A DNA stretch of 64,000 nucleotides from a virus (taxonomy: Duplodnaviria > Caudoviricetes), in IMG/VR virus record IMGVR_UViG_3300033069_001852; one strand, given 5' to 3'. Positions 8,627 through 58,520 of this stretch are shown here, piece after piece (position 1 is the stretch's first letter; every line of letters begins with the position of its first letter). The position numbers and the translations under genes were made by a program. Below the pieces are notes generated by a model. That model had not been told where the DNA came from, searched no databases, and saw only the letters and a list, made by a program, of their open reading frames with translations.

Positions 8627-9247
8627 ATGAAATTGGCTAAACTTTTAATGGAGAGTGAGACCGTAGGCAAAACCTTCGTCTCCGTGGATATTCAGCCAGA
8701 GTATGAAAACGGGTTCGACTTCCAATTGTACACCCTTGTAGAGTTTTTAAATACCCATTACGATGATATGGCTCAGTTGGTTTTCCTGTATAATGGTCAC
8801 GAGACCTTGGGCATGATAAGGGAGATGGATTATAAAATGTGGTGGTTGGAAAACGGTTTGCGGGAGGACATCGTTGACTCTGCCATATTTTATGATAAGG
8901 GCTATGCGTTTTTCCGCTATTGTATGGATAGTGGCTTGGATCACGATGTCACGGTAAATTTTATTAGATTCCTATACGAAAATGATATTCGGGATTCTCG
9001 GGAAATGGATCGGAATATGTGGGCGAAGTATCTGCGCCAATATCGTAGAACGGATAAGAAAGAAGCCCACGAATTACTGGCCAGTTCAGCGGATTGCGTA
9101 AACATTCCTGATTTGATGGATTTCATAAAACGCTTTTCCAACCTTGTTCTCACCGGTGGCGGCATTAATGAATGTCTGAAAGAAGTGGAAATTGCGCTTC
9201 AAGCCTTAAATAAATCTTACAAAATTTTCTCCAAATTTACATACTGA
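8627..9247 (+). CDS. Isochorismatase-like cysteine hydrolase fold protein with MKLAKLLME leader
   Basis: FVSVDIQ (DxQ) near the N-terminus and LVLTGGGINEC (G-x4-C nucleophile loop) near the C-terminus. Confidence 0.5.
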   Translation: MKLAKLLMESETVGKTFVSVDIQPEYENGFDFQLYTLVEFLNTHYDDMAQLVFLYNGHETLGMIREMDYKMWWLENGLREDIVDSAIFYDKGYAFFRYCMDSGLDHDVTVNFIRFLYENDIRDSREMDRNMWAKYLRQYRRTDKKEAHELLASSADCVNIPDLMDFIKRFSNLVLTGGGINECLKEVEIALQALNKSYKIFSKFTY

Positions 9248-9278
9248 ATAATTCATTCGATATTTATTGCTAGGGCTT

Positions 9279-9482
9279 ATGAAAGCGAGCAAAAATAACA
9301 GACCGACGCATGTTCCGTATAATGATAACGACCTTGAACATGTCTCTGCGGGGCCGGAGTATGGCCAAACCTGGCGGAACCGGAATCAGGTCTGGGCAGA
9401 ATTTGAGTCGGCGGAATATGCTGGTTGGGTTAACGAAATACAATCTGCGATTCTGAGAATAAGGCGAATCAGCTTTTTATGA
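9279..9482 (+). CDS. Small hypothetical protein
   Basis: ATG 10 nt after a TATTTATT box at 9261-9268. Confidence 0.4.
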   Translation: MKASKNNRPTHVPYNDNDLEHVSAGPEYGQTWRNRNQVWAEFESAEYAGWVNEIQSAILRIRRISFL

Positions 9483-9643
9483 CACGAAGACTAGGTACTT
9501 AAGTACTTTAAGCCCTGGTTGCTTTTAAGCTTGCTTTACACTGGGCTTGTTGCGCTTCTGGGCTTAAGTACATCATTTTTTTAAACCCTTGTCAACATTA
9601 TTCAATCTTATTTGGATATTTATATTCAGTCTGAATTTAAAAT

Positions 9644-10183
9644 ATGATATCCATTGTCCCACCCAATAGTCTGGCTAAAAAATATGACCGAATAATCTTC
9701 TGTGATTTAGACGGCGTGCTTGTCGATTTTAAACAAGGGGCATTAAATTTAGGCGTGGATATTGGCGGACAGGACAAACCGCACCCCAATGAGGACAAGC
9801 TTTGGCAGGCGGTTGATGCTTATGGTAAGGATAAATTTTTTGCTAATCTACCGTGGATGCCCGACGGCCAGCAACTCTGGCGTTTTATTAATGAAAATTT
9901 CTTGGATGTAAAAATTTTAACCGCATTGGGTAAGTCGGACAAAAAGGACAATCTGACTCGCAAGGGCAAAGGTGAATGGTTACAAAAAAACATTCCCGAG
10001 CTTCGTTTGCGGAACGTTCATATGGTCCCCAATAAACACGCCAAAAAACATTATGCTAGTCCAGGAGATGTCTTGATCGATGACACGGATATATGTATCA
10101 ATGAGTGGTTAACGAAGGGTGGAATCGGAATTTTACATAAAAATACCCAAGAAACAATACAGAGGCTGGCTAAATTAATATGA
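9644..10183 (+). CDS. HAD-superfamily 5'(3')-deoxyribonucleotidase (NT5C-like)
   Basis: FCDLDGVLVDF (motif I), ILTA (motif II), K..W, LIDD (motif IV), W...GGIGILH. Confidence 0.85.
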   Translation: MISIVPPNSLAKKYDRIIFCDLDGVLVDFKQGALNLGVDIGGQDKPHPNEDKLWQAVDAYGKDKFFANLPWMPDGQQLWRFINENFLDVKILTALGKSDKKDNLTRKGKGEWLQKNIPELRLRNVHMVPNKHAKKHYASPGDVLIDDTDICINEWLTKGGIGILHKNTQETIQRLAKLI

Positions 10184-11058
10184 ATAAATCAAATCTAAAA
10201 GAATTTGTCAAACGGACACTGGAAGCGATGGAAGACTTGACCAACATAAAAAAGAAACAATCTGGCGTCAGTCCCGATAAACTAAAACATTCTGGATGTC
10301 CGAAGTGTAAAAATCCAATGACCACATTGAATTCCACCAAACCGCCGATGTGGGGCTGCGACAAATGTAAACATACCTGGAAAGAAGCGGTCAATGAAAA
10401 CGACGAACCAATAAAAAGAGCATATTCTAAATACAAAGCGGTGTGTAGAAAATCCCCCTGGAAATTCGATGAAAAAAATATAGCTTCATTTGGAGTATTT
10501 AAAAAACACTACCTGAGTAAAAAAGACAAAGTAAATGAAGAGCACGGCGATGTCCATTATTGGGGTGCGCAACCAAAAGATAAAAATAGTAGTATCTCTA
10601 CGGGCTATAAAGGGACCGATCCGATAAAAACCCCTGTGACTGAGGCTGGTCAACCAAAAATGAGTCCTATGGATTTTGAGATTAAAAGGCGCGAAATCGA
10701 AAATATCCTTAATAAAGGCGGTCGACGCAACGCCGTCGTAGATTTTTTTGATCAAAAAGAAATTATAGACCTAACAGGCGATACGGATAAGGATGGCGCA
10801 ATTGTAATCCAACCAAACAAAGCTTTAGACATATATCGCGGGGGTATTTTTATCTACCCAACCCACTATGAGATTTTACTTAAACTTGTTGATGGTAAAA
10901 AGATTGATCTTCGTAAAGTAACGGATTGGGACCAGGTCAAGAAAACCATTCGTGGTTATAGCGGATTAAACGAATCCATCAATAACAAAGCGCTCCACCG
11001 ATTGGTTATCGAGGCGGCTAAAGAAGTCGTCGCGGAAAGTCGTAATAGGAAAAAATGA
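10180..11058 (+). CDS. Hypothetical protein, Zn ribbon, probable head-internal protein
   Basis: CPKC..CDKC; LKEFVKRTLE leader and repeated VNE/VTE/LNE segments. Confidence 0.55.
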   Translation: MNKSNLKEFVKRTLEAMEDLTNIKKKQSGVSPDKLKHSGCPKCKNPMTTLNSTKPPMWGCDKCKHTWKEAVNENDEPIKRAYSKYKAVCRKSPWKFDEKNIASFGVFKKHYLSKKDKVNEEHGDVHYWGAQPKDKNSSISTGYKGTDPIKTPVTEAGQPKMSPMDFEIKRREIENILNKGGRRNAVVDFFDQKEIIDLTGDTDKDGAIVIQPNKALDIYRGGIFIYPTHYEILLKLVDGKKIDLRKVTDWDQVKKTIRGYSGLNESINNKALHRLVIEAAKEVVAESRNRKK

Positions 11059-13271
11059 TACAATTCCGGATTTACAACAAACACCTTGACCAAAATCTCT
11101 GGAATGAGCAGAAAGAGCTTGATCCGGAGGTGCGGACTATTCTCCTGAAGATCGCTAAGGATTATTATGAGGGGAACAAAGAAATTGAAGGTGCGCTGGT
11201 CGACGCGTATATCGTCGGTTCCTCCGCAAATTACAATTGGACTCCGGATAGCGATATAGACTTACATCTGGTCGTTGACGCAAGTAAATTAGATTTGGAG
11301 GAGGAAACGGCCCGTTCATTATTCGAATTGATGGCCAATAAATGGAACCAAAATCACGCCATTAAAGTCAAAGGTCACAATCTTGAACTCTACATTCAGG
11401 ACATCAACCACAATGTGCGCTCTTCTGGAATTTATTCACTTACCACCGGCGAATGGGTAAAAGAACCCCATCCGGAAAAAGTGGAAATCGACGAAGAAAA
11501 TATTAAACAAAAATACCGGAATATGGTAGCCCGGATAGACAACGCCGTCCAGGAACAAAGCGTGGTCAAGATGAAGAAGGTGATGGAAGATTTACGGAAC
11601 CAACGCAACACCGGCCTTGCCCGCGCAGGTGAATTTAGCACGGAAAATATTGTTTTCAAGATGCTGCGTCGGTTTGGCAACATCGAAAAGTTAAAGAAGG
11701 CAACGCATCAGGTTTATGACCGGGAAATGACTCTGACGGAAGGCATTAAAAATCCCCACGATTTGATTATTGGTTACGTCACCCCCTCTTTAAAAGTAAA
11801 CGCAAAGGATTATTCCCAGATCAAGGGGCATACTGATTTTATTGATGTGAAGAGTTGGTATGGTGTCACCGCCTGGCGGTTCCGTCGTGATCTAAATTTA
11901 TTATTCTGGTGGAAACCGCATACGGGTGAGATTAGTCAAGATGAACGGGATACGGTCGTGGAATTTCTGGAACAGAAGTACAAAGCGCGTAACATCACTC
12001 AAAAATTTTTAGTTCCTGGGCCAGGTATGAATCAGGATAACTGGGACATTTCCCACGGCGTGAAAGAGACCCTTCAACAGGAGGAAGATGGGGGTCGGAT
12101 TAATCCCGATGATCTAATCGTTGGCTATATCGACAAAAATATGGAGATAAAATCCACCTCCAGTCGTATCGCCAAGACCCACGGACATTTCAGCGGTCAA
12201 TACTGGAATGGTCAGGATAGGACCATTGGCTGGCGCTTCCGCAAAGATTTAGGAGTATTATACTGGTGGGATGGTGACCCGGATGATCGTTCGGTGAGTA
12301 ATGCCGACCGGCTGGCGGTGTTAGATTACCTGCGTGAAAAATATCATTTCACGGGACCAATTCAACAAAAAATCATTACCATCGGTGATAACGATACCCG
12401 GGACGATAAACGAAGAGCCCACGGGGTGTTTGAAATGGCCGATTTACAGCTAAAAGGTAAAACTCCCTATGCGGGGGAAGTGCGGCTTAAAGATTTGCCG
12501 ATTGAAGCCGCCAAAGAAAACATTGTGGTTTTTCGCAACGACAAGGAAACCTTTTTCCCCGCCGGATTTACCTTGGTTTATTTCATGGATTCTGACCAAG
12601 CCGTTCAAGCCATTAAAACCGGCGGCATTCCCTACCTTATGGTGCCCCGTGGGACATTTTATTCCGGCGGCTCACCAATCACCGACATCTGGAAGAAAAA
12701 ATTTCAAAAACCAGGTACCGAACATATCATTGGTGTATTAGAAGGCGTAAGCAATGACCAGGAAATTTTCGTGGATATGCTTACCGTCCGGCCACATTGG
12801 CAAAGAAATCACGTCGCCACACGGATGCTTAATCAGTTAAAAACAATGTTCCCCAACGCACAAGTTAAAACTTCCGGCCAGACGGCGACCGGTGAAAAAT
12901 TTTTTAGTGCGCTGAAAGAAGAGGATACCAACCCTAATCGCAGCTTTACATGGATAACCGGATTAACCAACGACAATTTAGAATCGGTTTCCGAAAAATA
13001 TAGCGGGCACATCAACAATGTTACCCATCAAAAACTTCAAATAAAAAATTCGCAGAAATTTCCTACGGGGCATACAATTGCCTGGCGCTATGTTTATGAT
13101 GGCGACTTCATAAATTTTTGGAATTCACCCTCTGCCGATCAAACGGAAGAAATTTACTCCCACCTTAAACAAAAATACGGAATTACGCCCAAACGCAATG
13201 TCATCATACCGTCCCACAAACATATGTTTACGCCGCGGACAGATGAGCCGCTTGCGGAGCTTGCGGTTTAG
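11055..13271 (+). CDS. Multidomain protein: Pol-beta-type nucleotidyltransferase + three repeats of an unknown domain + GNAT acetyltransferase
   Basis: IVGSSANYNW..DSDIDLHL (GS...DxD) with a downstream ELY; repeats G......WR(F/Y)..D....(F/Y)W...L.QKY; VDMLTVRPHWQRNHVATRML (GNAT motif A) and QT..GEKFF. Confidence 0.75.
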   Translation: MIQFRIYNKHLDQNLWNEQKELDPEVRTILLKIAKDYYEGNKEIEGALVDAYIVGSSANYNWTPDSDIDLHLVVDASKLDLEEETARSLFELMANKWNQNHAIKVKGHNLELYIQDINHNVRSSGIYSLTTGEWVKEPHPEKVEIDEENIKQKYRNMVARIDNAVQEQSVVKMKKVMEDLRNQRNTGLARAGEFSTENIVFKMLRRFGNIEKLKKATHQVYDREMTLTEGIKNPHDLIIGYVTPSLKVNAKDYSQIKGHTDFIDVKSWYGVTAWRFRRDLNLLFWWKPHTGEISQDERDTVVEFLEQKYKARNITQKFLVPGPGMNQDNWDISHGVKETLQQEEDGGRINPDDLIVGYIDKNMEIKSTSSRIAKTHGHFSGQYWNGQDRTIGWRFRKDLGVLYWWDGDPDDRSVSNADRLAVLDYLREKYHFTGPIQQKIITIGDNDTRDDKRRAHGVFEMADLQLKGKTPYAGEVRLKDLPIEAAKENIVVFRNDKETFFPAGFTLVYFMDSDQAVQAIKTGGIPYLMVPRGTFYSGGSPITDIWKKKFQKPGTEHIIGVLEGVSNDQEIFVDMLTVRPHWQRNHVATRMLNQLKTMFPNAQVKTSGQTATGEKFFSALKEEDTNPNRSFTWITGLTNDNLESVSEKYSGHINNVTHQKLQIKNSQKFPTGHTIAWRYVYDGDFINFWNSPSADQTEEIYSHLKQKYGITPKRNVIIPSHKHMFTPRTDEPLAELAV

Positions 13272-14838
13272 TTGAGTGCCAAACCCACTTGGTATTGCCA
13301 CAATCCCAGATTCGGTCAAACCCAGCCGCCTGCATGTTCCCCCACTCCGTCAACGCAGGGTTAAAATTACTTAACACCTTTTTCAATTTGTGTTTTTGAA
13401 ATGACATACGATTTTTCGAAGTGGCATAATTGCCCATAATGTAGAAATAATTTGGGCTAGTATTATGCGAAAACAAGAATCCTAATTGAACGTATAAATT
13501 TCCTGTAAAAAATCGCCTGTCGCTGTAAGAGACGATGCTTTTCGGTTTAAAATTATTGATAAAGTGATTAAATAATTTACCGGCACTGCCAATGACACTG
13601 GTATCCAATTTATTACAGAACCTAGACATCTCCCACTCCACTTTCTTATCAAACCGGGATTTGCAAAATGTCATTAACGATACCAATTCATTTTTACTAT
13701 ATAAACCAAACCGAAGGGACGATATATCCTTTCCCTGTAAATGATTGTTTACAAGAAATAAATCACTTTCATTTTTTGGAACCGGACGGATAACGCATTT
13801 TCGCCCAAAAACTTTTTGGTTTTGATGGCGGGAAAAAAGATTCTTTAAAATAGATTTTATGATCGATTGTTTAAATTTCCATTCGTCTTCCCATATCTGT
13901 AACAACCTAATGCCATTCAACAAACAACGTTTCATTTTATTTAAATGGTATACCTTATTTTTTCCGCCAATACACTCACTGTGCCAATATAACCCATTAC
14001 ACTCAATGGCTAGTTTGAGTTTTGGAATATAGATATCCAATTCTTTTGGACTTAAAATTGTTCTATCATCAATGGCAATGTCAATCTCCGGTCCCAACAA
14101 TTCCGTGACATAATCCACGATTTCTTTTTGGAAAAATGACATGCCATTTTTATCACACGTTGGACATATCGGCCCCTTTCCATTGCTGATGAAATATTCC
14201 GACTTGTAATTACACCGTTTACACTTAAACGGATATTTTTTATTAAACGCCTTTGTAACTCCGGAGTACTCATCTAAACCGAACAGAGGTTCAAAATTTA
14301 CGAACCGCTCGTGATCCATAAATTTAGAAAACATATTTTTGTTATGGACCAATTTAAACTGTCGTGTTTTGGAGGGGTGATCGACTCCGTATTTCCTTAT
14401 ACAGGTATTTTGACTTTTCAAACGATATGCTTCAGTATTTAGAAAACTGGAAACGCCATACTTTTCCAAACATGTCTCTTTGGTTTGTTCTTTATTGTTA
14501 TAATTTTCGTCACCGTATCTGGCCGATAGTGTTTTCTTGGTTTTATCCTTATGATCGGACATTTTCCCAGGATGATCCACCCCATGTTTATTCAACATCG
14601 ACTGTTTGAACCTTTCTTGGGTTTGTGTAGTTTGCATGGGATGATGGCCACCATAACGAAGATCGTGAATTTCTTTTTGACTAGCCGCCATTTTCGCCAA
14701 TGTATCAGGATGTTTCTGTGCACATGCCTTACTACAGAACCGTTGGACATTTCGCTTGTAGAAGGATACGGAAAATGTTTTTTGGCAAGTTAGACATGTT
14801 TTTTCAACAAAGTCAGGATTTAGTTTTGGTCGCCCCAT
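13228..14838 (-). CDS. Hef-like homing endonuclease (KYGV repeats + PD-(D/E)XK) with C-terminal Mom-like GNAT domain
   Basis: KYGVDHP repeats; ELDIYIP..KLAIECNGLYWHS, IWEDEW; C-terminal NHLQG, ELVSLMTF, WEMSRFC, IVSYSDRR..G.LY..LGF, RIWDCG. Confidence 0.8.
   Translation of the reverse strand: MGRPKLNPDFVEKTCLTCQKTFSVSFYKRNVQRFCSKACAQKHPDTLAKMAASQKEIHDLRYGGHHPMQTTQTQERFKQSMLNKHGVDHPGKMSDHKDKTKKTLSARYGDENYNNKEQTKETCLEKYGVSSFLNTEAYRLKSQNTCIRKYGVDHPSKTRQFKLVHNKNMFSKFMDHERFVNFEPLFGLDEYSGVTKAFNKKYPFKCKRCNYKSEYFISNGKGPICPTCDKNGMSFFQKEIVDYVTELLGPEIDIAIDDRTILSPKELDIYIPKLKLAIECNGLYWHSECIGGKNKVYHLNKMKRCLLNGIRLLQIWEDEWKFKQSIIKSILKNLFSRHQNQKVFGRKCVIRPVPKNESDLFLVNNHLQGKDISSLRFGLYSKNELVSLMTFCKSRFDKKVEWEMSRFCNKLDTSVIGSAGKLFNHFINNFKPKSIVSYSDRRFFTGNLYVQLGFLFSHNTSPNYFYIMGNYATSKNRMSFQKHKLKKVLSNFNPALTEWGNMQAAGFDRIWDCGNTKWVWHSTKPQAPQAAHLSAA
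14456..14493 (-). repeat. 38-bp perfect inverted repeat, copy 2 (partner 8150-8187)
   Basis: Exact reverse complement of 8150-8187. Confidence 0.9.
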
Positions 14839-14915
14839 ATAATATTCTTTCTGTTCAAATGTGTCTATCTATATATAGATTATCCAAAGGGATACGACAA
14901 TATTTTATATTCGGA

Positions 14916-14923
14916 TATTTATT
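14916..14923 (+). promoter_or_regulatory. Putative late promoter TATTTATT (tail tube)
   Basis: Recurrent motif. Confidence 0.65.
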
Positions 14924-14962: not shown

Positions 14963-15454
14963 ATGACCGAACTAATTAATCCAAATGAGATATTCTGGAC
15001 TGCCTTCGAACCAAAAGTGAAGAACAGGTTCATTATGTATCTTGACGGTGTCCCCGCTTTCACTATTCGTAAGACTGACCGCCCAAAGGTACAGAGCGAA
15101 AAGAAAGCTCTGGACCACATCAACACCCAGCGTTATTACAAGGGCAAGACCACTTGGCAAGATATGACGATGGAACTTTACGACCCTATTGTCCCGTCCG
15201 CCGCGCAAGCCGTGATGGAATGGATTCGGCTTTCTCACGAAAGCGTAACGGGCCGCGATGGTTATCAGGACTTCTACAAGAAGGATGTCACCATCAACGT
15301 TTTGGGTCCCGTCGGTGATAAAGTGGAAGAGTGGGTTCTCAAAGGGGCCTTCCCGATTGCCGCAGACTTTCAAGATGTTGATTGGCAGGACAGCGGCGAT
15401 CCACTGGGCATTACGGTCACCCTCAGTATTGACTACGCAATTCTACAATACTGA
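14963..15454 (+). CDS. Tail tube protein (T4 gp19-like)
   Basis: FEPK..NRF, GKTTW, LYDPI.PS.AQAVMEW, GRDGY..FYKKD, GD.VEEW.LKGAFP, LSIDYA; 163 aa. Confidence 0.92.
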   Translation: MTELINPNEIFWTAFEPKVKNRFIMYLDGVPAFTIRKTDRPKVQSEKKALDHINTQRYYKGKTTWQDMTMELYDPIVPSAAQAVMEWIRLSHESVTGRDGYQDFYKKDVTINVLGPVGDKVEEWVLKGAFPIAADFQDVDWQDSGDPLGITVTLSIDYAILQY

Positions 15455-15520: not shown

Positions 15521-15545
15521 ATGCGCATCCAATCCGCGGGAGTTA

Positions 15546-15553
15546 TATTTATT
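15546..15553 (+). promoter_or_regulatory. Putative late promoter TATTTATT (ART-like array)
   Basis: Between the tube terminator and ATG 15570. Confidence 0.65.
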
Positions 15554-15569: not shown

Positions 15570-16580
15570 ATGTCCATTATTAGATTAAAACCGATAGTTG
15601 AAGCTACCTTGTCTGAAAAAACTGCTTTTGGCAGTCGCTCTGGCCAGAAATCCCTTCGCCGGTTTGAGGTTAAATCGGAAGTTTTCCAACGGCTTTTAAA
15701 TGGACCTTTCAAAAACTATTCCCACCGTGAGCTACCGGAATATGAAAAAATATATCGGCTCGCTGAAAAACGCCGTAGCAAATCCAGAGGCGCTCCTGTG
15801 GAATATGAAATCATTGTGCCCCGTAAATCAGAACGCAGCTCAAAGGATTCCTGGAATACCTACACGGTATTGTTGAGTAAATTGCCTAGTTGGGCCGGCT
15901 GGCCCAAGCGTTCCCATTCCGTGATATTTTTCGTTGGGTCGATTAAGACGGATACCCAGTATGGGAGTCATATTTATAGGCTTATCCCCAAGAACGGGGC
16001 GAAAATTGCGGTGTCCACTCACCACGACATTTTAGAGCCGCCCGCCTGGCCTCACATGCGCCAACTCTTGTCCCGGAATGGTCAATTCATTGATATCACC
16101 GTGCTTTGTCAATTACTTGGTCGCATGATCAGTTGGGCGCAGGTGGCTAAAAAATATAAAGACAAAGCTCCGAACGTGTTCGGCAGCGACTTAAATGACC
16201 TTAAATCTCAAAATTTAAATAATTGGGTTATGAATGTGCGGTTAGAAAATTATGCTAAACTCATAAAACTTTTGGATGCTTCCCTAAACCAAAAAACCCT
16301 GCCCCAAATTAAAAACGCCTTGGACAGCGCTTTTACCAACTCCCCGTTGGGGGAATGGCAAAAAAATAGATTCTTGGAGTATAAGGAAACTTTTGAATTT
16401 TATGCTAATTTGGTGGAGAAATATGGCGGCTGGGAAAACTTATTGAGTGAAGCGTTGGATCCGGTTAAAAATGGTTTCGAACTGATGACGGCAGAGAATG
16501 TCCGCCCCAACCATAATAAATCGTGTGAGGCCTGGACCGATGACGCGTGTTTGATGAAATATGACAAGGGGAATTTTTAA
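15570..16580 (+). CDS. ADP-ribosyltransferase-fold paralogue 1 (divergent)
   Basis: Shares LPSW..WPKRS.S, YG, P.NGAKI, L.P..NGF and EAWTD with the next three ORFs; has IYRL in place of YRG and lacks the central Ser. Confidence 0.5.
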   Translation: MSIIRLKPIVEATLSEKTAFGSRSGQKSLRRFEVKSEVFQRLLNGPFKNYSHRELPEYEKIYRLAEKRRSKSRGAPVEYEIIVPRKSERSSKDSWNTYTVLLSKLPSWAGWPKRSHSVIFFVGSIKTDTQYGSHIYRLIPKNGAKIAVSTHHDILEPPAWPHMRQLLSRNGQFIDITVLCQLLGRMISWAQVAKKYKDKAPNVFGSDLNDLKSQNLNNWVMNVRLENYAKLIKLLDASLNQKTLPQIKNALDSAFTNSPLGEWQKNRFLEYKETFEFYANLVEKYGGWENLLSEALDPVKNGFELMTAENVRPNHNKSCEAWTDDACLMKYDKGNF

Positions 16581-17455
16581 TGTTAAAACTGTCCAACATT
16601 TTGACGGAGACGACCAGACGGAGCCAGAAGATTCGCAAACCCATCTTTATGAATGCTTTGGTCCGGGGTCAATTCTCTTCTGCTTATAACAAAATGTTGG
16701 AGGGACGGAGGATCTATCGGGGCATAACCGGTAGTGCGGAATGGCCTTATTGGATTGTCAAACCAGGCTCCGCGGAGCGCAAATCACGCAATACTTCCAA
16801 TTTTTATACCGGCTTGATTGATAACTTACCAAGTTGGAAAAACTACCCCAAACGCAGCCGTAGTATCATATGTTCTACCGGACGTGGTGGAGCAGCTTCG
16901 TTTGGTAATGTTCTGGATGTCTTTCCAAAAAATGGAGCCAAAATTGGCATTTGTTCAGCGGAAGATTTCTGGTTATCCTTCCCGGCCACCCACACGCGGC
17001 TTGATCTTCAGGACATGTCCTATTTCAACGCGTATTTCATTTCTATTTTTTACCAAGCCTCTCACAAGCTTTCGCATCTAGCCTCCGAACTGACGGATAA
17101 AACTTATCCCGCATTTATCAAGCTTGCGAATGAGTTGATTAACAAAGAAAAATACATTGAAACGATTAACATTCAGAGGTCGGTAGACCGTTTACCTTAC
17201 GGCGTATCTTCGGATATGTTGGTGAAGGATGTCCGGTTTAATTTTAACAACGATTGGGAAAAATACTTTGATGAATTGTTGAATCCTGAAATTAACGGCT
17301 TTGTGATTACTACGATTGAAGATTACCAAATACCAACCGATTCCGCCAGCGACATCGAAATTTGGACAGACGCACCTTCACTAATGATTAGCCATCACCA
17401 TCAACAGGAATTATTTTCCTCCGATCTTGCGGCTCGGCCTGGAGGCACGATATGA
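16580..17455 (+). CDS. ADP-ribosyltransferase-fold paralogue 2
   Basis: IYRG ... SIICSTGRGGAASFG ... DIEIWTD gives an R-S-E-like triad; MLKLSNILTE leader. Confidence 0.6.
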   Translation: MLKLSNILTETTRRSQKIRKPIFMNALVRGQFSSAYNKMLEGRRIYRGITGSAEWPYWIVKPGSAERKSRNTSNFYTGLIDNLPSWKNYPKRSRSIICSTGRGGAASFGNVLDVFPKNGAKIGICSAEDFWLSFPATHTRLDLQDMSYFNAYFISIFYQASHKLSHLASELTDKTYPAFIKLANELINKEKYIETINIQRSVDRLPYGVSSDMLVKDVRFNFNNDWEKYFDELLNPEINGFVITTIEDYQIPTDSASDIEIWTDAPSLMISHHHQQELFSSDLAARPGGTI

Positions 17456-18429
17456 TAAAACTCTCTTACTTGTTAATGGAAGATGAGAATGAGCGTGATC
17501 CCAGCTTGAGGAAGTCTCGGGAAATCCCGGTCACTGCCGCCATTAACATCTTACGCACCCAGTGTACGGAAGCGGTAAAACTATTCAGTGAGCACCCAGC
17601 GGGAACCGGTTTATACCGTGGTTATCGGAGTGATAATTATTGTTTGGAAATTGACCCAACAACCCGGGAACGAACGGGCAGCCGCAACTTATATAACGCA
17701 TTAACTTCCATTTTACCGTCCTGGTCAGAATTCCCCCAGCGTAGCCATTCCGTGATGTTCAGTCCGACTCCGGAAATCGCCAAGGTTTATGGTAAAATTT
17801 ATTGGTTATTTCCTTTTGACCAATCGTCGATTGCGCATTGTAATAACCGTGATTGTTGGTATTCTTTTGAATACGCTACCAAGAGGCTCGGTAGGGGGAT
17901 TAGCAGTATTGATTATGTCATGGATTTATTTTCAATACTGATCGCATATTCAGTGATTTCAACACGGAAAGATATTGATGGGAATTATTATTTCAATACT
18001 AAAGTGGGCAAGCATTTCACCAAACGTGAATATACGGTTTCAAATGCGCAAGCCTTGTTGAAAGAGATGAAACGTATTACTCCCGCAATTTTAAAGCTTT
18101 GTCAGAAAGAAATTGACAAACCAAAAAAGGATTTTGAAATCGTCGGCATATGCGGGGATATCCTTAAAAATTTTAAAGGGGATTGGGTGGAATACTTCGA
18201 TTTACTATTAAGTCCGGAAAACAATAAAATAGGTTTGACAACTATTTCCGAAACCGTGAAGTTTCCCCGGGTGGAAATGTGGACGACCGGAAAATGTATT
18301 ATGGTTAACCCCCAGACCGATTTTAACTTTTACAACCTTGGCGACACTTCAATCTGCGGCACATTTTTTAAACATAATATTCAGGTGGCGAAAACCGCCG
18401 GTGCCATCCACCTAATGGGGATTCCATGA
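17452..18429 (+). CDS. ADP-ribosyltransferase-fold paralogue 3
   Basis: LYRG ... SVMFSPTPEIAKVYG ... VEMWT; MIKLSYLLME leader. Confidence 0.6.
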   Translation: MIKLSYLLMEDENERDPSLRKSREIPVTAAINILRTQCTEAVKLFSEHPAGTGLYRGYRSDNYCLEIDPTTRERTGSRNLYNALTSILPSWSEFPQRSHSVMFSPTPEIAKVYGKIYWLFPFDQSSIAHCNNRDCWYSFEYATKRLGRGISSIDYVMDLFSILIAYSVISTRKDIDGNYYFNTKVGKHFTKREYTVSNAQALLKEMKRITPAILKLCQKEIDKPKKDFEIVGICGDILKNFKGDWVEYFDLLLSPENNKIGLTTISETVKFPRVEMWTTGKCIMVNPQTDFNFYNLGDTSICGTFFKHNIQVAKTAGAIHLMGIP

Positions 18430-19253
18430 TAAAACTTTCTCAACTATTGAATGAGTCGGATAATGTGGCAGGCGGCCCCCGGACAAAACAGATCGCCAGT
18501 GCCGCAGCAGGACAGAAACTTCTGATCCATAAAGCTTCAGCCGCTCTAGAAGCTGCCCGCCGGGATTGTGGAATTTACCGTGGGGTGAAAACCCTACCCA
18601 ATGAATATGCGGCCTACCGTTTTGTCCGGCCCGCTAAAGCTTATCGCATGGCTAAAAACACAACCAATTTTACCAATGCGGTGTTGGATGTTATTCCAAG
18701 CTGGAAGTCTTGGCCCAAGCGCAGTCAGAGCATCGTCTGTTCCAATGCGCCCGACCGCGCCGGCGGCTATGGTATAACCTTTGGGGTTTTTCCTTTTAAC
18801 GGAGCTAAGATCGGAATCAGTTCCGATGCGGATTTCTGGATGTCTTTCGAAAGGTTAAATGATCGTTTGGGTTGGGATGTCGCCACCTTCAACGATCAGA
18901 TGGCCATTGCCCTAGAGGGGATAGGGATATATGAAGATTTGGAGCGGATACTACCGCGGGGAATACAAAAAATCTTTAATCACATTGACAGCAAATTTAT
19001 ATTGTACCCCAATTTTTTCGAAAACCTTTTTGCTTCAAGTTCCTATCGCAGCCGTGACCCTATATTAAAGGACATGGCCAAATATATGACTGAAGGCGCA
19101 GAGAAATATTTTGACGAATTACTAAATCCTGAGGCGAACGGTTTTAAATTAGTCACCATTGAAGAATACGATTTGAGTCAGTATCCAGCAATGGAGGTCT
19201 GGACCGATAGTCCGGCTCTATTAATTGATCGCAAGGTGGTGGCTTTACCTTAA
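18426..19253 (+). CDS. ADP-ribosyltransferase-fold paralogue 4
   Basis: IYRG ... SIVCSNAPDRAGGYG ... MEVWTD; MIKLSQLLNE leader. Confidence 0.6.
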   Translation: MIKLSQLLNESDNVAGGPRTKQIASAAAGQKLLIHKASAALEAARRDCGIYRGVKTLPNEYAAYRFVRPAKAYRMAKNTTNFTNAVLDVIPSWKSWPKRSQSIVCSNAPDRAGGYGITFGVFPFNGAKIGISSDADFWMSFERLNDRLGWDVATFNDQMAIALEGIGIYEDLERILPRGIQKIFNHIDSKFILYPNFFENLFASSSYRSRDPILKDMAKYMTEGAEKYFDELLNPEANGFKLVTIEEYDLSQYPAMEVWTDSPALLIDRKVVALP

Positions 19254-19272
19254 TATTTGTATATTTATGTCT

Positions 19273-19995
19273 ATGGTAAAACTAGCGGAATTGGTGATGA
19301 ATGAGTCGGTTTATGACAAGGGACTATTTAAAGCGGTCTTTTTCGGCGGGCTTCCCGGAGCCGGCAAGTCCTACACCATACAAAATATCTCTGATGGCAA
19401 TATTGAACCCCGGATCGTCAATTTTGACAAGTATGCGGAATTTCTGGGCAAACAATTGGACATCAAAGATGTCGGAGGTTATGTGGATAAGACCTTCATT
19501 GACCGGACTAAGCGCATGACGATCAATCAACTTTCCCTGTATGTTAATGGAATGTTGCCCTTGTTCGTGGATAGTACAAGCAATAAGATTAACCGTGCAG
19601 TTTATCGGGATGGTTTGTTGAAAATGTTTGGTTATGACACCGCTATGGTTTGGGTCAATACTTCACTGGAGACTGCGATTAAACGAATTCAAAAACGGGA
19701 TCGTTCAGTCCCTATTCCTTTTGTCAAGGCGGTATTCAAGAATATGGAAGAGAATAAAGCCTACTACAAAAGCCATTTTGAAATGTTCGTTGAGGTTAAT
19801 AATGACGAAGGCGAATTGACCGATAAAGTCATTACCGACGCATACAAAAAAGTATCGGGATTTTTTAAAACGGAAGTGGGTAACCCCACCGGCCGCCGCA
19901 ATTACCAAGCGGCTAAAGCATCTTCCGGCTATTTGGTGCCTCAGGTTTACCGTGATATAAACAAAATCAAGAGCAAGTTAGTCAATTGGTATTGA
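19273..19995 (+). CDS. P-loop kinase (zeta-toxin/AAA_33/PNK-like)
   Basis: FKAVFFGGLPGAGKS Walker A, VNFD, FVDST, VNTSLETAIKR...RDR lid; start reassigned to MVKLAELVMNE. Confidence 0.8.
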   Translation: MVKLAELVMNESVYDKGLFKAVFFGGLPGAGKSYTIQNISDGNIEPRIVNFDKYAEFLGKQLDIKDVGGYVDKTFIDRTKRMTINQLSLYVNGMLPLFVDSTSNKINRAVYRDGLLKMFGYDTAMVWVNTSLETAIKRIQKRDRSVPIPFVKAVFKNMEENKAYYKSHFEMFVEVNNDEGELTDKVITDAYKKVSGFFKTEVGNPTGRRNYQAAKASSGYLVPQVYRDINKIKSKLVNWY

Positions 19996-20009
19996 TATTT
20001 ATACATTAC

Positions 20010-20321
20010 ATGAATTTTGCGCAATTAAAAACGATGATCAAAGCAATCCTCAATGAAGCAATTGATGGGTTTGTTTTTCACGATCATCCCGAAGCCGCAA
20101 CGGGCGATGGCTTCAACGTCCCAACGGATGTGAAATATAATAGCATTTATCTAGGCACGCTGGTTTCCAAGCCGGATGGTTATGAAATTGCGTATCTGGA
20201 CACACCTAAAGGCAAACAAAAAATTTCCAGCAATAAACAGAATAAATTTAAATCCAAGAACGCCGCGGCGGAAAAACTTCATGAGATTTGGCGTTTGGTC
20301 AGAAACAAAGGACTATTTTAA
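20010..20321 (+). CDS. Hypothetical protein with LKTMIKAILNE leader
   Basis: ATG 6 nt after TATTTATA (19996-20003). Confidence 0.6.
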   Translation: MNFAQLKTMIKAILNEAIDGFVFHDHPEAATGDGFNVPTDVKYNSIYLGTLVSKPDGYEIAYLDTPKGKQKISSNKQNKFKSKNAAAEKLHEIWRLVRNKGLF

Positions 20322-20322
20322 T

Positions 20323-21246
20323 ATGAATACAATTGGTATCCTCCCCGGGCGTTTTCAACCGCCGCATCGGGGGCACTTGGAAGCTTACAAACACGCCGTT
20401 CAGATCGTGGGTAAGAACAACGCATATGTTGCGACTTCTGACAAAATCGATCCGATTAAATCACCTTTGAATTTCAGAGAGAAGCAACAGATTTGGACGC
20501 GGCATGGGGTGCCAATTGATAAAGTTGTAAAGGTTACCAATCCCTATAAGTCGGAAGAAATCACGCATAAATTCAATCCCAAACAAACGGCGGCAATTTT
20601 CTTTCTTTCCCAGAAAGACGCCGCTAGGATTCCATTTAAAAACGCCGCGGGGCAACCCTCATATTTTCAACCCTATAAAGGTAATGAAGATAAACTTCAA
20701 CCTATTTCCGAACACGGTTATATCGCCGTAACTCCGACTTTTAAAATTGACGGTAAAAACATCTCCGGAACGGTAGTGCGTGAAGGCCTGGGATCGGCTA
20801 AATACAGCGAATCGCAAAAACGCAAACTCTTCCAATGGATCTTTGGTTGGTTTGATATGGCTCTGTTTGAATTGTTGGTGGATAAATTCACCGCCGCGGA
20901 ACAGGATAAAAACAAACCCGTCACTCCGATTAATGAGGTCCACCAAAGATTGAAAGAATATCTGAAGGGAATCATCCGAGAATTAACCTTTTCTGTGCCT
21001 AGTGTTGAGCCCGATGTTTCCGCCGATCCTAAAAAACCCACAACCATAACCGACCCCACGGCCGAAAAAGATCCAGATCAGGAACGAAAAGATCGGGAAA
21101 TGTCACGGCGAAAATTGGAATTGATAAAAAAGAAACGTCAATTCCAAGATAGTCAAAAGAACTGGCGCACAAAGGGGGTTGAACAGGACAAACGCGATAT
21201 CCGGGCCACCGATGCGGAAATCGCTGATTTGCGCTCCCAGATATAA
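20323..21246 (+). CDS. HIGH-motif nucleotidyltransferase (cytidylyltransferase/NMNAT-like) with charged C-terminal tail
   Basis: ILPGRFQPPHRGH, SPLNFREK, ISGTVVRE; start reassigned to MNTIG. Confidence 0.8.
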   Translation: MNTIGILPGRFQPPHRGHLEAYKHAVQIVGKNNAYVATSDKIDPIKSPLNFREKQQIWTRHGVPIDKVVKVTNPYKSEEITHKFNPKQTAAIFFLSQKDAARIPFKNAAGQPSYFQPYKGNEDKLQPISEHGYIAVTPTFKIDGKNISGTVVREGLGSAKYSESQKRKLFQWIFGWFDMALFELLVDKFTAAEQDKNKPVTPINEVHQRLKEYLKGIIRELTFSVPSVEPDVSADPKKPTTITDPTAEKDPDQERKDREMSRRKLELIKKKRQFQDSQKNWRTKGVEQDKRDIRATDAEIADLRSQI

Positions 21247-30997: not shown

Positions 30998-31010
30998 CCC
31001 AAGTCCTCCA

Positions 31011-43744: not shown

Positions 43745-43773
43745 TTGATCATTTTCTTCATAACGGTTATAAT
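43745..43773 (+). promoter_or_regulatory. Sigma70-like early promoter
   Basis: TTGATC-N17-TATAAT; ATG at 43782. Confidence 0.65.
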
Positions 43774-43781
43774 TGTGGTCT

Positions 43782-44555: not shown

Positions 44556-44563
44556 CCAGTCTA

Positions 44564-44571
44564 TATTTATT
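44564..44571 (+). promoter_or_regulatory. Putative late promoter TATTTATT (Mom copy 2)
   Basis: 4 nt upstream of ATG 44576. Confidence 0.65.
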
Positions 44572-44575
44572 GGGA

Positions 44576-46550: not shown

Positions 46551-47093
46551 ATGAAAAAACTTTTTGAAAATGTGGGTGGTAATCAATTCAAAGTATCCCG
46601 TGTCAACGAATCCAGTGATATATGTCCGGAATGTAATGGTAGTGGTGAGGGACCCGCCGATGGAACCCGCTGTCAAACTTGTAAGGGATCAGGCCGTGAA
46701 TCCAACTCTGGAAGCGACAAAGACAACGATTTTGCCGCGGATATAGATATTGACACCGACCCCAAAAAAGACCGGTCCGGGATGGATGAAACTGCTCCAA
46801 AGCAAAGGGCCTTAAAGGGTACAAAACACCCAATAATTCGTTATGATAAAGGAAATGGAGCTGCTCCTGAAGTATCTCCGTTGGCTGACGATCTTGTCAC
46901 TGGCGATGAATTTTTGGAAGGTATTATCGGTTGGATGAAAACCAATCCCAATGGAAAGATTATTATAGAACATTCCATCAGTGATCCAAAAAAAGTATCT
47001 TCTAAAAAACCCACAAAATCAACCTCCGGTGGATGGGAACATTATAGGGAACCAGGAAGAGATCATATTCCAGAAACCCCATACGGAGAATAA
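46551..47093 (+). CDS. Hypothetical protein with DnaJ-type Zn finger
   Basis: CPECNGSG...CQTCKGSG; MKKLFE start. Confidence 0.6.
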   Translation: MKKLFENVGGNQFKVSRVNESSDICPECNGSGEGPADGTRCQTCKGSGRESNSGSDKDNDFAADIDIDTDPKKDRSGMDETAPKQRALKGTKHPIIRYDKGNGAAPEVSPLADDLVTGDEFLEGIIGWMKTNPNGKIIIEHSISDPKKVSSKKPTKSTSGGWEHYREPGRDHIPETPYGE

Positions 47094-47145: not shown

Positions 47146-47146
47146 A

Positions 47147-51103: not shown

Positions 51104-51350
51104 TTTTTCCTGAGTATTTTTGATTATGCGGATTGTAAAAAGTCGCATGATCGATGTCTGGTTTATAGTAAACAACCGTGACATTTTTTGTCAGGTGAGT
51201 AATCGTGCTCATAACAAGGTTTCGGCTTCCATATGCGATGGGAATATCCATATCCGCATCAAATAGAGCATATTTTATCTGGCCTTTGCTATTTTTAAAT
51301 TCAAATACATGATATAATAATGTTTCTGGATTGATTCTTTTGAGTGGCAT
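51075..51350 (-). CDS. Hypothetical protein
   Basis: ORF divergent from the DUF4338 gene. Confidence 0.5.
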   Translation of the reverse strand: MPLKRINPETLLYHVFEFKNSKGQIKYALFDADMDIPIAYGSRNLVMSTITHLTKNVTVVYYKPDIDHATFYNPHNQKYSGKNETPVKASQ

Positions 51351-51360
51351 ATGGTATAAT
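51331..51360 (+). promoter_or_regulatory. Sigma70-like promoter
   Basis: TTGATT-N18-TATAAT with an extended TG; ATG at 51368. Confidence 0.55.
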
Positions 51361-51367
51361 CATAAGT

Positions 51368-52573
51368 ATGAATCAAATAGAGACGATCAATCAATTTTTC
51401 ACAGGAAACAATTTGGAGTTCGACTTCGCGGCCGAGAAAACAGCCCTCGTAAAAAACTTGACTTGGTTGAAAAGTTTGGATGTCACTGAAGCTACCCTTT
51501 ATAAGAAATGGGAAGAGATTCAAATTTACAAGGATTTATATAATCAAGCCGCCAGCGTCAAACCTCTTATCTGGCGTCCCACTGATATAAACGATGAGAA
51601 GAAAACGATTCAAGAAATAGAAGAACTCAATCCCACCTTGGTTCCCGTAAATGTCGATAACACGGACTGGATGACAATGCGCATTTTCTGCCATACCGCT
51701 GAATTTAATCAATCCCCCGGACGGTATATGAAATTTATTGTCACTGATGGAAACAATAATACTTTCGGTGAAGTACCACGATATCTTGGGTTTATCGCCG
51801 TGGCTAGTGATGTTATTACTATCAAGTGCCGCGATGATTACATCGGTTGGACAAACGCACATCGGGTAAAAGACAAGCTAATCGGACATTCCGCAATCGG
51901 AACATGCGTGGCACCGACGCAGCCGTTTGGTTACAATTTTTTAGGCGGAAAACTTACCGCGGCGCTGACCGTGAGTAAAGCGGTCCGTGATCGTTGGCAG
52001 GAATTATACCACGAACTTCTAGTGGGTATGTCCGTCACATCGCTGTATGGTTCATTTAGTCAATATACAAATTTAAAATGGTGGCGGGATTGCGGTAAGT
52101 CCGCCGGTAAGATTTTACTTAAACCCGATGAGAAACATTATCAGATCTGGCATGAATGGTTGAAGAAAAACCGATCCGAACAATATGTCAAGGCCATGAC
52201 GCAAAAGGAAGGCATCTCCGGCCCGGTAACCAGTTCAAAACTAAGAATTTTATCGATGATTTTTGATGTCGTGGATTTGAAACTTAAAAATTATACGCAT
52301 GGCTTTGAACGCGGAGTGTACTATTCGATGTTTTATGAAAATGGCCGAGACTTCTTTCAGAAGAAGATAAAGGAAGATCAACTGATTATGAAAAAATTAT
52401 ATCAGGATGATTTAAACGCCATAATGGAATATTGGCGCCCGCGCGCAATTGAACGATATAAGAAATTGAAAGCCGCCGGTAAATTAAAAGCGGATGTATT
52501 ATTTTATTCCGATATGATCGATATGCCCTATGAAGAAGCGAAAAAACGCTTTTTACCTGATGTGGGGAGATAA
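51368..52573 (+). CDS. DUF4338/DruA-like (Mom-related GNAT) protein
   Basis: SPGR..KFIV.D, YLGFI..ASD....RD.YIGW, PTQPFGYNFLGGKL.A.L, TSLYG..SQY. Confidence 0.7.
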   Translation: MNQIETINQFFTGNNLEFDFAAEKTALVKNLTWLKSLDVTEATLYKKWEEIQIYKDLYNQAASVKPLIWRPTDINDEKKTIQEIEELNPTLVPVNVDNTDWMTMRIFCHTAEFNQSPGRYMKFIVTDGNNNTFGEVPRYLGFIAVASDVITIKCRDDYIGWTNAHRVKDKLIGHSAIGTCVAPTQPFGYNFLGGKLTAALTVSKAVRDRWQELYHELLVGMSVTSLYGSFSQYTNLKWWRDCGKSAGKILLKPDEKHYQIWHEWLKKNRSEQYVKAMTQKEGISGPVTSSKLRILSMIFDVVDLKLKNYTHGFERGVYYSMFYENGRDFFQKKIKEDQLIMKKLYQDDLNAIMEYWRPRAIERYKKLKAAGKLKADVLFYSDMIDMPYEEAKKRFLPDVGR

Positions 52574-54413: not shown

Positions 54414-54430
54414 CTTACAATTTCCAACTT

Positions 54431-56730: not shown

Positions 56731-56738
56731 TATTATTT

Positions 56739-56996
56739 ATGAATCTTGGAGAATTGAAAGCATCATTAAGTCGTATGAGTCCTGATCTTGATGAGTGTGA
56801 GGTAATGTTATTAACGATGAGTTCAAAAAGCAAAGAACAACACGATTTATTAGCATTTACTTCATACGTTGTCATTAAGGACCGGGAAAACCCCATATTT
56901 ATGATGGGCTCTCATAAGGCGGCCTTAAAAATGTTTAAGGATGGTAGATTGAAGTATTCGGACGGTACCATTCCTGACCCAAAAGACCTTGGGTAA
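56739..56996 (+). CDS. Hypothetical protein
   Basis: Short ORF continuing the operon. Confidence 0.5.
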   Translation: MNLGELKASLSRMSPDLDECEVMLLTMSSKSKEQHDLLAFTSYVVIKDRENPIFMMGSHKAALKMFKDGRLKYSDGTIPDPKDLG

Positions 56997-57092
56997 GCTG
57001 CTTTTAGGCTTATTATTGTAATTCAAATCCCGCTCAATATACCATTTTGACCTCTTTTTGGTATTCCGACCTCATTCCAGACATAAATCGTA

Positions 57093-57100
57093 TATTTATA
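57093..57100 (+). promoter_or_regulatory. Putative late promoter TATTTATA (amidoligase)
   Basis: 4 nt upstream of ATG 57105. Confidence 0.65.
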
Positions 57101-57104
57101 CGGT

Positions 57105-58520
57105 ATGATTCGTTTGAAAGAAATAGTCCCCTTTAATAAAACCGACGCGGTTGAGAAGGGATTGAGTAAGAAATATCGTGATCTTGCCGCCGGCACTTTT
57201 GGCTTGGATATCGAATTTCATACCGCTTCATCAGATGACGACTTTGACCCCAGCGATTATATTGACGAATTTGTCAGAGAAGTATCCCGTAGTCATAGTA
57301 GTATGGATGAATATTATGATTGGTTGAACGACCAGCGTGAATGGGATAATCGCAGATATCGGGGAGATAACTGGGATGATTCTCACGGACCGGAGGATGA
57401 AGATAACTGGCTAAAATATCATCCCGACCCCGAGCGATCTGATTATTCAGAAGGGCCCGATGGCGATTCTTTGTTTGATCAGGCTCGGGATGAGTGGTTG
57501 GATGATCGCCGGCGGATCGAACGCTCTTATAGTTCGTGGGAATCCCGTGACCGGGAAGATTATGTCCACGAATGGTTCAGCGAAAAAATCTCCGATGGGA
57601 CATGGAGTGATTATGTTGAAGCTCCCATTGTCGACCGCAGGGTAGACGATCAGGCAATAGTAGATACTGATGATTACATCGAATCGCTAACGGGCCAACC
57701 CGGTTCTAAATCGGGTTGGGAGGTGGGTGAAGACGGCGCGGATATAATGGAAATTCGGACGCCGCCGATGACCTACACTCCGGAAAATCTTTCCCTTTTG
57801 TCCAAGGTCATGTCTTATTGTTATAAGAATTATGAAGCTGCCGGTGATACATCGGCGCACGTTCATATTGGGATGGAAAAAGACTCCACGATTTTCGACT
57901 TATTAGCCGCAACGACTTTGGTCGATGAAAAAGCGATCCAAAAGGATATTAGCGCGGACCGGGAACTAGAACAATTTGCGGCCTTAGCGGATGCCATTCA
58001 TAACAAAATCATAGATGCTATTGACAACTTTTTACATCAACGGGAAATGGAAATTTCTCAAATGATTGGGAAGTCTTTCACGGTTCCAAATGAGCAACTA
58101 AAAACCTACATAAAAAACGCAGTAAGTCGATACTCAGGAACCAACATTCAGTCATTTTTTAGACACCAAACTTTGGAATTTAGATATTTTAGTTCCCAAA
58201 TTGCGCCTCATATGGGGAAATTTGAACAATGGATAAAATACTTTATGTTAATTGCGAAGATCGCACGTAGTCGGAACCAATTCACCATCGGTAAAACTAA
58301 ACCATATCCGCTTGCCTTTACCCGGGAAGGCAAGGGAATGACGAAAATTACTATTCTGGATGAAAAAGGTAAAATGCCAAAGGCGACAGGAATGCCGTCG
58401 GATCATTTGCGCTCACAACCACCTGATCCGGGAGCCGAAGAGAAGAAAATTCAGGCTATGTTAAAGAAAAAAGCGCATGAACCTAACCAACCTGAATTAC
58501 AATTTTCTAAACTGCCTTAA
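57105..58520 (+). CDS. Putative amidoligase (COOH-NH2 ligase type 2) with acidic insertion
   Basis: TFGLDIEF, W....D....EIRTP, SAHVHIG, RY...N, TLEFRYF; MIRLKE leader with TATTTATA 4 nt upstream. Confidence 0.7.
   Translation: MIRLKEIVPFNKTDAVEKGLSKKYRDLAAGTFGLDIEFHTASSDDDFDPSDYIDEFVREVSRSHSSMDEYYDWLNDQREWDNRRYRGDNWDDSHGPEDEDNWLKYHPDPERSDYSEGPDGDSLFDQARDEWLDDRRRIERSYSSWESRDREDYVHEWFSEKISDGTWSDYVEAPIVDRRVDDQAIVDTDDYIESLTGQPGSKSGWEVGEDGADIMEIRTPPMTYTPENLSLLSKVMSYCYKNYEAAGDTSAHVHIGMEKDSTIFDLLAATTLVDEKAIQKDISADRELEQFAALADAIHNKIIDAIDNFLHQREMEISQMIGKSFTVPNEQLKTYIKNAVSRYSGTNIQSFFRHQTLEFRYFSSQIAPHMGKFEQWIKYFMLIAKIARSRNQFTIGKTKPYPLAFTREGKGMTKITILDEKGKMPKATGMPSDHLRSQPPDPGAEEKKIQAMLKKKAHEPNQPELQFSKLP

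Follow-up and report, generated by a model that had tools for sequence, protein, structure and literature searches.

Within a stretch of 64,000 nucleotides (nt) of viral DNA (IMG/VR record IMGVR_UViG_3300033069_001852; Duplodnaviria, Caudoviricetes), hereafter the window, a set of otherwise dissimilar proteins begins with one short N-terminal leader, which is probably a capsid targeting sequence (CTS) of the T4 type with a role in both targeting and cleavage. The window is part of a 185,113-bp contig, and its source is an uncultured myovirus distantly related to T4. The leader reads M-x-(K/R)-L-x-x-(L/I)-(L/V)-x-E at the start of genes 8627, 16580, 17452, 18426, 31031 and 44576 (genes are named by the window position of their first nucleotide), and degenerate, short or long forms of it are found at 15570, 19273, 57105, 32644 and perhaps 20010 (Table 1). 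In T4 itself, the internal proteins and Alt carry a short N-terminal capsid-targeting peptide, which the prohead protease gp21 removes after (I/L)-x-E. An earlier interpretation made from the letters alone (the sequence-only reading) had proposed a head-loading tag of this kind, removable by a protease, and the proposal is supported by the match to T4, by the tags of related phages and their recovery in virions of phages Atu_ph07 and RsoM2USA, by the co-occurrence of a gp21-type protease and by a conserved junction behind the leader.

In order to describe the pattern, we derived a strict regular expression from the clearest window cases (M.{0,1}[KR][LF]..[LIV][LIV].E). It matched five window proteins (8627, 16580, 17452, 18426 and 44576), each time on the first Met of the open reading frame (ORF), and its core had no internal occurrence in the ~21,000 residues of window ORFs of at least 100 amino acids (aa). 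A looser pattern gave seven N-terminal matches, with 0.27 expected. In order to avoid circularity, a 10-column position-specific scoring matrix (PSSM) was trained only on the tags of another phage, the uncultured phage LR756508, and each of the 65 window proteins was scored with it over residues 1-16, internal positions serving as the comparison. Seven genes (8627, 17452, 18426, 31031, 44576, 16580 and 32644) reached p<0.007 each and 57105 reached p=0.0135, so that this independent matrix recovered eight window genes. The near-identical leaders on which the sequence-only reading was built are therefore present, and they are enriched at ORF starts by both the expression and the PSSM. As that reading also held, tail and replication proteins are devoid of the tag: the PSSM gave no score for any of them, and by gene inspection it is absent from the sheath, tube, baseplate hub, single-stranded DNA-binding protein (SSB), UvsX, exonuclease, helicase and ribonucleotide reductase (RNR).

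Thirteen tag bearers had been named, most of which we accept. The ungapped PSSM missed 15570, whose leader is one residue short, and 19273, whose leader is one residue longer; the former is kept for its paralogy with tagged genes and the latter on account of the canonical tag of its RsoM2USA orthologue. The short leader of 57105 is validated by homologues that carry full tags before the same mature N terminus, IVPF. Gene 20010, with a PSSM score below significance, is a possible member. Genes 10180 and 46551 are doubtful and were not retained, as their PSSM scores are not above background; the MKKLFE of 46551 might be a short form comparable to the leader of 57105.

The bearers had further been called unrelated, and this needs one correction. 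The four tagged genes spanning 15570-19253 are paralogues and do not count independently, so that the leader is found in at least six independent protein families. This paralogy is what speaks for chance or whole-gene common descent as the origin of the resemblance, an explanation that we find hardly credible. Outside the paralogous family similarity is limited to the leader, which lies at residue 1 and is 9-11 residues long in 8627, 16580, 17452, 18426, 19273 and 44576; BLASTP detected no similarity among 8627, the paralogous family, 19273, 31031, 44576 and 57105, and their domains and folds are distinct. The absence of internal occurrences and the finding of the same domain with and without a leader also speak against chance or common descent, which is refuted for 8627, 19273, 31031, 44576 and 57105.

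The likeness to the T4 CTS extends to individual positions. In T4 the first 10 residues of IPIII are enough for packaging, with targeting determined mainly by residues 4 and 7 and processing by residues 8 and 10 (PMC9026906). The window tags are conserved precisely at these determinants, namely 4 (L/F), 7 (L/I), 8 (L/V/I) and 10 (E), T4 itself having Y4 and F7; when 19 family members from four phages are aligned, E10 does not vary and L8 hardly does. The T4 proteins that we compared start with MKTYQEFIAE (IPII and IPIII), MKTFKEFTS...ITE (IPI) and MELITELFDE (Alt, behind TATAAATA), and a graded series leads to them from the window (MIKLSYLLME) through LR756508 (MKFKNLLFE) and RsoM2USA (MKTFKQFLSE). 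Both systems thus have an N-terminal module of ~10 residues with a hydrophobic or aromatic residue at 4 and 7, a hydrophobic one at 8 and Glu at 10; in both it is borne by otherwise unrelated proteins that are expressed late (as predicted from the promoter-like box in the case of the window), and for the window phage a gp21-type protease is found in related genomes and tagged proteins in virions of relatives. They differ in consensus ((K/R)-L-x-x-L-L-x-E in the window versus K-T-Y-Q-E-F-I-A-E in T4), in cargo (mostly 200-540-aa enzymes versus small basic proteins) and in number (about 10 tagged genes in 64 kb and 22-28 in LR756508, versus three internal proteins in T4). Leader forms of 6 aa (short) and of 16-24 aa (long) also set the window apart, as does the use of the same junction in relatives to join whole domains into fusions. 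CTS-like leaders occur on varied proteins in T-even phages, and it has been suggested that they let T4-like phages pack varied proteins (PMC9026906).

The tag is widespread among relatives of the window phage. In LR756508, 22 genes fit the strict expression derived from the window, all at the first Met and against 0.37 expected, and its tags include MLKLKDLIKE; the long leader of 32644 resembles those of small ORFs adjoining the protease gene of this phage. RsoM2USA carries MKTFKQFLSE, MKTFKLFLSE and MTTFKEYLTE, which are almost the T4 IPI leader. A tag of this type also opens most of 46 metagenomic homologues of 16580. In Atu_ph07 the variant is shorter, M-(K/R)-W-x-Q-L-x-E, and is borne by an array of 16580 homologues as well as by other proteins.

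For Atu_ph07, 140 of 714 gene products have been detected in virions by electrospray ionization tandem mass spectrometry (ESI-MS/MS; Table S5, PMC6102473). We scanned the whole genome for tag-bearing ORF starts (n=23) and matched them to this list on the basis of gene order and predicted mass (agreement to 0.01 kDa), with the gp numbering verified on the genome record. Twenty of the 23 correspond to virion-list proteins (gp43, gp53-63, gp381, gp407/408, gp482, gp487, gp548, gp561 and gp672), with gp numbers that rise with genome position; relative to the 20% baseline the binomial p is ~1e-12, or 4e-5 when the paralogues of the 16580 type are counted once. The products gp53-63, gp55/56 included, are the homologues of window 16580, and gp53, represented in virions by 31 unique peptides, also contains an orthologue of the window kinase 19273. 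In RsoM2USA the tagged ORF89 (MKTFKQFLSE, 253 aa) is among the ten most abundant virion bands according to published tandem mass spectrometry after liquid chromatography (LC-MS/MS). Peptidase_S77, the family of T4 gp21, is encoded by all three of RsoM2USA, LR756508 and Atu_ph07 and by 15 of 18 large IMG/VR contigs with a member of the 8627 family (12 of 13 where completeness is 90% or more). Besides, two Peptidase_S77 genes contain a ~330-aa insertion inside one continuous frame (LR756508 156507-158102 and IMG/VR record G014 214260-215930; 576 and 651 aa), which could be an intein or an inserted domain.

Homologues of the tagged proteins show that the leader is a separable module. The 8627 family comprises 973 homologues, and among the 120 matches listed 79 have a leader and 18 do not. 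Of 167 distinct N-terminal regions of this family, 147 have a hydrophobic-x-Glu site whose Glu lies 8-14 residues (mode 10) before a conserved VDIQ motif; 18 regions are without leader and two have a leader but no such site, so that the site is found in 147 of the 149 leader-bearing regions. In 14 of the 167 an entire extra domain (GNAT-like, HExxH-like or nucleotidyltransferase-like) replaces the leader, and 13 of these 14 have hydrophobic-x-Glu at the joint with differing flanking residues. Likewise, in the amidoligase family homologues have full leaders (MIKLKQLVNE, MISFKDILLE) before the mature start (I/V)(V/I)P(F/Y), where the window gene has the short MIRLKE.

An address that a protease removes should be a separable N-terminal module with a fixed end point and a final Glu in every case, as is seen here, and the invariance of the leader Glu, with a junction that stays fixed even behind a whole domain, points to processing. 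The same features bear on whether the leader might be a virion-incorporation signal without T4-type cleavage or injection, the proteins remaining structural or decorative or being degraded in the head, with no delivery. Such a role would suit the proteomic data, which show just presence in virion preparations, and the location of the gene arrays next to tail and neck genes. However, it does not account for the Glu and the junction; moreover, ART-fold (ADP-ribosyltransferase-fold), kinase and hydrolase cargo has no obvious structural role, and T4 Alt is a direct precedent for delivery. We therefore regard incorporation alone as unlikely.

Two observations concern the same junction. At ten loci of relatives the 8627-type hydrolase is the C-terminal module of such fusions, with the hydrophobic-x-Glu joint at an unchanged distance from VDIQ, and these fusions look like cargo polyproteins. 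In the window, the 738-aa product of 11055-13271 (nucleotidyltransferase plus weak GNAT) contains RLKDLPIE at residues 477-484, between its two modules; with a PSSM score of 12.1 it is the only strong internal tag-like match in the window, and it may link the halves of a two-part cargo through a protease site.

We then considered the DNA upstream of the tagged genes. The ATATTTAT box occurs 19 times on the plus strand of the window, versus 2.8 expected, and its complement twice. Fourteen of the 19 copies lie at most 47 nt upstream of a start codon, among them the copies that precede gene 22390 (753 aa), the sheath and tube genes and each of the seven transcription units with tagged genes. The statement of the sequence-only reading that almost all tagged genes lie behind the box holds in part: the box is directly upstream of seven of the 13 claimed genes, the other six being inner genes of operons with a box only at their head. 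From its company (sheath, tube, 22390) we read the box as a putative late or structural promoter, one that differs from TATAAATA, the late promoter of T4. The distance from the end of the ATATTTAT(A) box to the ATG is as short as 3-7 nt for five tagged genes (8614-8627, 19261-19273, 19995-20010, 44563-44576 and 57092-57105), and homologues on unrelated IMG/VR contigs (four loci) show the same spacing. Such spacing suggests that the late mRNAs of box-proximal tagged genes may be leaderless or near-leaderless.

With mRNAs of this kind, the shared start could reflect a constraint on their 5' end (initiation region, downstream box) rather than a protein signal, and AAA codons are indeed common at positions 2-3. 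This is highly improbable, since different synonymous codons for Leu and Glu are used among the window tags, and the tags of LR756508 persist with no box and behind quite different upstream DNA, both of which indicate conservation at the protein level. RsoM2USA and Atu_ph07 also keep the tag behind unrelated upstream DNA. Moreover, the inner operon genes 16580, 17452 and 18426 are tagged without a box, and the box-preceded sheath, tube, 43034 and 45679 have no tag. A peptide recognised by some other machine (a modifying enzyme, a membrane or secretion address, or a degradation signal) is compatible with the generic nature of an amphipathic N-terminal helix. We nevertheless judge it very unlikely, because no conserved candidate partner enzyme lies beside the tagged genes in the window, the leader has neither hydrophobic core nor signal-peptidase site, and the enrichment in virion proteomes and the co-occurrence with Peptidase_S77 would be left unexplained.

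If the leader is a T4-type CTS, the tagged genes would be transcribed late from the ATATTTAT(A) box that they share with the sheath and tube genes. The first ~10 residues would form a short amphipathic helix which, through its hydrophobic residues 4 and 7, attaches the protein to the scaffolding core during prohead assembly, and a gp21-type protease (Peptidase_S77) would cut after the Glu of (L/I/V)-x-E at positions 8-10, so that the mature enzyme is set free in the head. At infection the cargo would leave with the DNA, as T4 IPI-III and Alt do. The predicted cargo comprises four ART-fold paralogues, a cysteine hydrolase, a P-loop kinase, a Mom-like protein, an amidoligase and two or three functionally unassigned proteins. 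Core docking, cleavage, injection and enzyme action in the host are steps that we infer, those of ejection and host effects by analogy with T4.

Several points weigh against this interpretation. Two or three of the claimed members do not rise above the PSSM background. The tagged genes lie among tail and replication genes, away from head genes, although ipI-III and alt of T4 are likewise dispersed. For this phage the analysis covered the 64-kb window, in which no protease, scaffold, capsid or other head gene was seen. The proteomic support comes from relatives. Furthermore, the Atu_ph07 tag is shorter, so that equating it with the window tag is partly inferential, and the Atu_ph07 virions were only purified with polyethylene glycol (PEG), their list holding likely contaminants (RNR, a RecA-like protein and SSB).

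In order to assign functions to the cargo, sequence and structure comparisons were combined. The AlphaFold model of 16580 has a predicted local distance difference test score (pLDDT) of 91.8, with the leader as a detached, low-confidence helix. Its top VIA-align matches are nearly all ART-fold structures, with modest Z scores of 3-6: Arr at 6.0, diphtheria toxin at 4.8 and PARP16 at 4.2, followed by further PARPs, Tpt1, cholix toxin and exotoxin A. Within the family R47-G48, R92, S95 and E260 are invariant in 19 sequences, in agreement with the aromatic-R-G, Ser-motif and catalytic-Glu pattern; in 42 sequences E260 and R92 do not vary, whereas R47 and S93 do so only rarely. At the sequence level the family had no match in Pfam, NCBIfam or PDB sequences (a profile against PDB gave noise), the sole hit being phrog_12810, of unknown function, and Foldseek against PDB returned nothing for the 16580 or the 8627 model. 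With moderate confidence, we read the four paralogues as carrying a divergent ART fold.

For 8627, VIA-align gave Z scores of 8.3-9.8 to the 21 best matches, all of them isochorismatase, nicotinamidase or cysteine-hydrolase structures, and D21, K91 and C183 (an Asp-Lys-Cys triad) are invariant in 43 sequences. Pfam had no match to its sequence; its predicted structure is an isochorismatase-like cysteine-hydrolase fold. Gene 19273 matches PF13671 (E 1.3e-7) and is 46% identical to RsoM2USA ORF254, which starts MTTFKEYLLE. Gene 44576 has a partial Mom-like domain (PF25680, E 2.4e-20), with a box and a tag of its own, and is adjoined upstream by a Mom paralogue (43773-44555) with a complete Mom domain and no tag. 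Gene 57105 encodes an Amidoligase_2 domain (PF12224, E 4.6e-13). The 31031 product belongs to no Pfam or NCBIfam family, 32644 to no family, and 20010 has no assignable function. Thus, among the enzyme labels of the sequence-only reading, ART fold, P-loop kinase, cysteine-hydrolase fold, Mom-like protein and Amidoligase_2 are retained. The label of nuclease is not: no tagged nuclease was identified, and the candidates 31031 and 32644 are without family. A tagged NMN/NaMN adenylyltransferase was also rejected, the 103-aa ORF 20010 and the adenylyltransferase-like gene 20320-21246 being separate genes in separate frames, the latter untagged. This untagged gene comes right after the ART array and the kinase, and with the nicotinamidase-like 8627 it makes up an NAD-centred gene set.

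The ART-fold paralogues resemble T4 Alt in being predicted ART-fold enzymes behind a presumed late promoter with a 10-residue leader ending in Glu, and in having homologues (Atu_ph07 gp53-63) in virions. They differ in being four diverged 275-336-aa paralogues versus one 682-aa protein, and in lacking a sequence match to Alt/VIP2 or a Pfam ART family, the resemblance consisting of the fold (Z up to 6.0) and the R/S/E pattern. The giant phages phiKZ, 201phi2-1 and SPN3US also have many head-internal proteins that a gp21-related protease cuts after Glu and that are ejected into the host; in contrast, their sites are (S/A/G)-x-E, their propeptides mostly exceed 100 aa and they share no 10-residue address at residue 1 (PMC5694885, PMC7411985). 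NAD/ADP-ribose enzymes delivered from the myovirus head (ARTs, Macro and Nudix domains) have been predicted by Iyer et al. 2022 (PMC9503650); in the accessible text of that paper the prediction relies on MuF/portal-domain fusions and gene neighbourhood, not on an N-terminal tag, and the window family is not named.

The principle is established T4 biology, and the finding is its extension to a new lineage with more cargo, not a new mechanism. In the open literature searched we found neither the tag described for the lineage of LR756508, RsoM2USA or Atu_ph07 nor any mention of its fit with the Atu_ph07 proteome. A wider scenario can be offered tentatively and with considerable doubt as to the whole: the tag would be a sequence-readable label of the injected proteome in a very large, mostly uncultured clade of the T4 superfamily; it would mark an NAD/ADP-ribose-centred enzyme kit (four ART-fold paralogues and a nicotinamidase-like hydrolase, together with kinase, Mom-like protein and amidoligase) that acts on host targets or defences before phage gene expression; its cassettes would be swapped at the protease junction; and the late mRNAs would be leaderless. 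Should the tag function as it does in T4, the proteins that a phage delivers could be read from its genome in a clade known almost only from metagenomes, which would provide a ready list of candidate host-takeover and anti-defence enzymes and open other phage chassis to CTS fusions, the protein-packaging tool of T4. Given the recovery of tagged Atu_ph07 ORFs in virions, this rule can be put to the test in cultured relatives straight away.

Table 1. Tagged genes, doubtful members and reference features of the window (positions in nt; PSSM, score or p value)
Feature	Position	Strand	Leader	Box	Remarks
Box ATATTTATA	4362-4370	+			33 nt upstream of tail sheath gene
Tail sheath, 1092 aa	4403-7681	+			best matches Microcystis phage Mel-JY01 and the 484-kb LR756508
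Candidate cargo 8627, 206 aa	8627-9247	+	MKLAKLLME (8627-8653)	ATATTTATA, 8614-8622, 4 nt before ATG	PSSM 12.8
Doubtful: Zn-ribbon protein (Pfam)	10180-11058	+	MNKSNLKEFVKRTLE		inner gene of 9644 operon; PSSM -0.4, not above background
Box	14915-14922	+			40 nt upstream of tail tube gene
Tail tube	14963-15454	+
First of four predicted ART-fold paralogues	15570-16580	+	MSIIRLKPIVE..TLSE (degenerate)	15545-15552, heads operon 15570-19253
Predicted ART-fold paralogue	16580-17455	+	MLKLSNILTE (16580-16609)		strict expression
Predicted ART-fold paralogue	17452-18429	+	MIKLSYLLME		paralogy, strict expression, PSSM
Predicted ART-fold paralogue	18426-19253	+	MIKLSQLLNE		paralogy, strict expression, PSSM
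P-loop kinase (AAA_33 / zeta-toxin-like)	19273-19995	+	MVKLAELVMNE (one residue extra)	19261-19268, 4 nt before ATG
103-aa ORF	20010-20321	+	MNFAQLKTMIKAILNE (possible long leader)	19995-20003	PSSM not significant
Baseplate hub	21305
538-aa tagged protein	31031-32647	+	MIMEKFLKDVILE	31010-31018	PSSM 10.1
127-aa protein	32644-33027	+	MKKTITLTQLKKLIKE..VIKE (long, two-site)		inner gene of 31031 operon; PSSM 5.4, p=0.006
Mom-like protein, 341 aa	44576-45601	+	MRLVELILE	44563-44570, 5 nt before ATG	strict expression
Doubtful	46551-47093	+	MKKLFE		PSSM not above background
Amidoligase, 471 aa	57105-58520	+	MIRLKE (short; right before mature start IVPF)	57092-57100, 4 nt before ATG

The gene order of the window is syntenic with LR756508, and the replication genes of the window encode a gp32-like SSB, UvsX, an exonuclease, a DnaB-type helicase and RNR. 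A megablast search with 20 kb of the window revealed no near-identical phage in the reference phage collection; tblastn of 57105 and 8627 against cultured phages gave no match, nor did 16580 as a single-protein query against the viral contig set, and a 28-mer of the window had no exact occurrence in the metagenome contig set. In a search of sequencing runs, window DNA was found in riverine metagenome runs with a share of 0.83; one wastewater RNA run held a share of only 0.07 and gives no evidence of expression. Three homing-endonuclease genes (GIY-YIG/HNH types) lie among the sheath, cargo and tube genes, at 3308-4333, 7763-8548 and 13228-14838, the last being the sole minus-strand gene of the late region. 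Finally, 51344-52573 encodes a 409-aa phage protein that matches the Druantia DruA domain (PF14236, E 5e-13).

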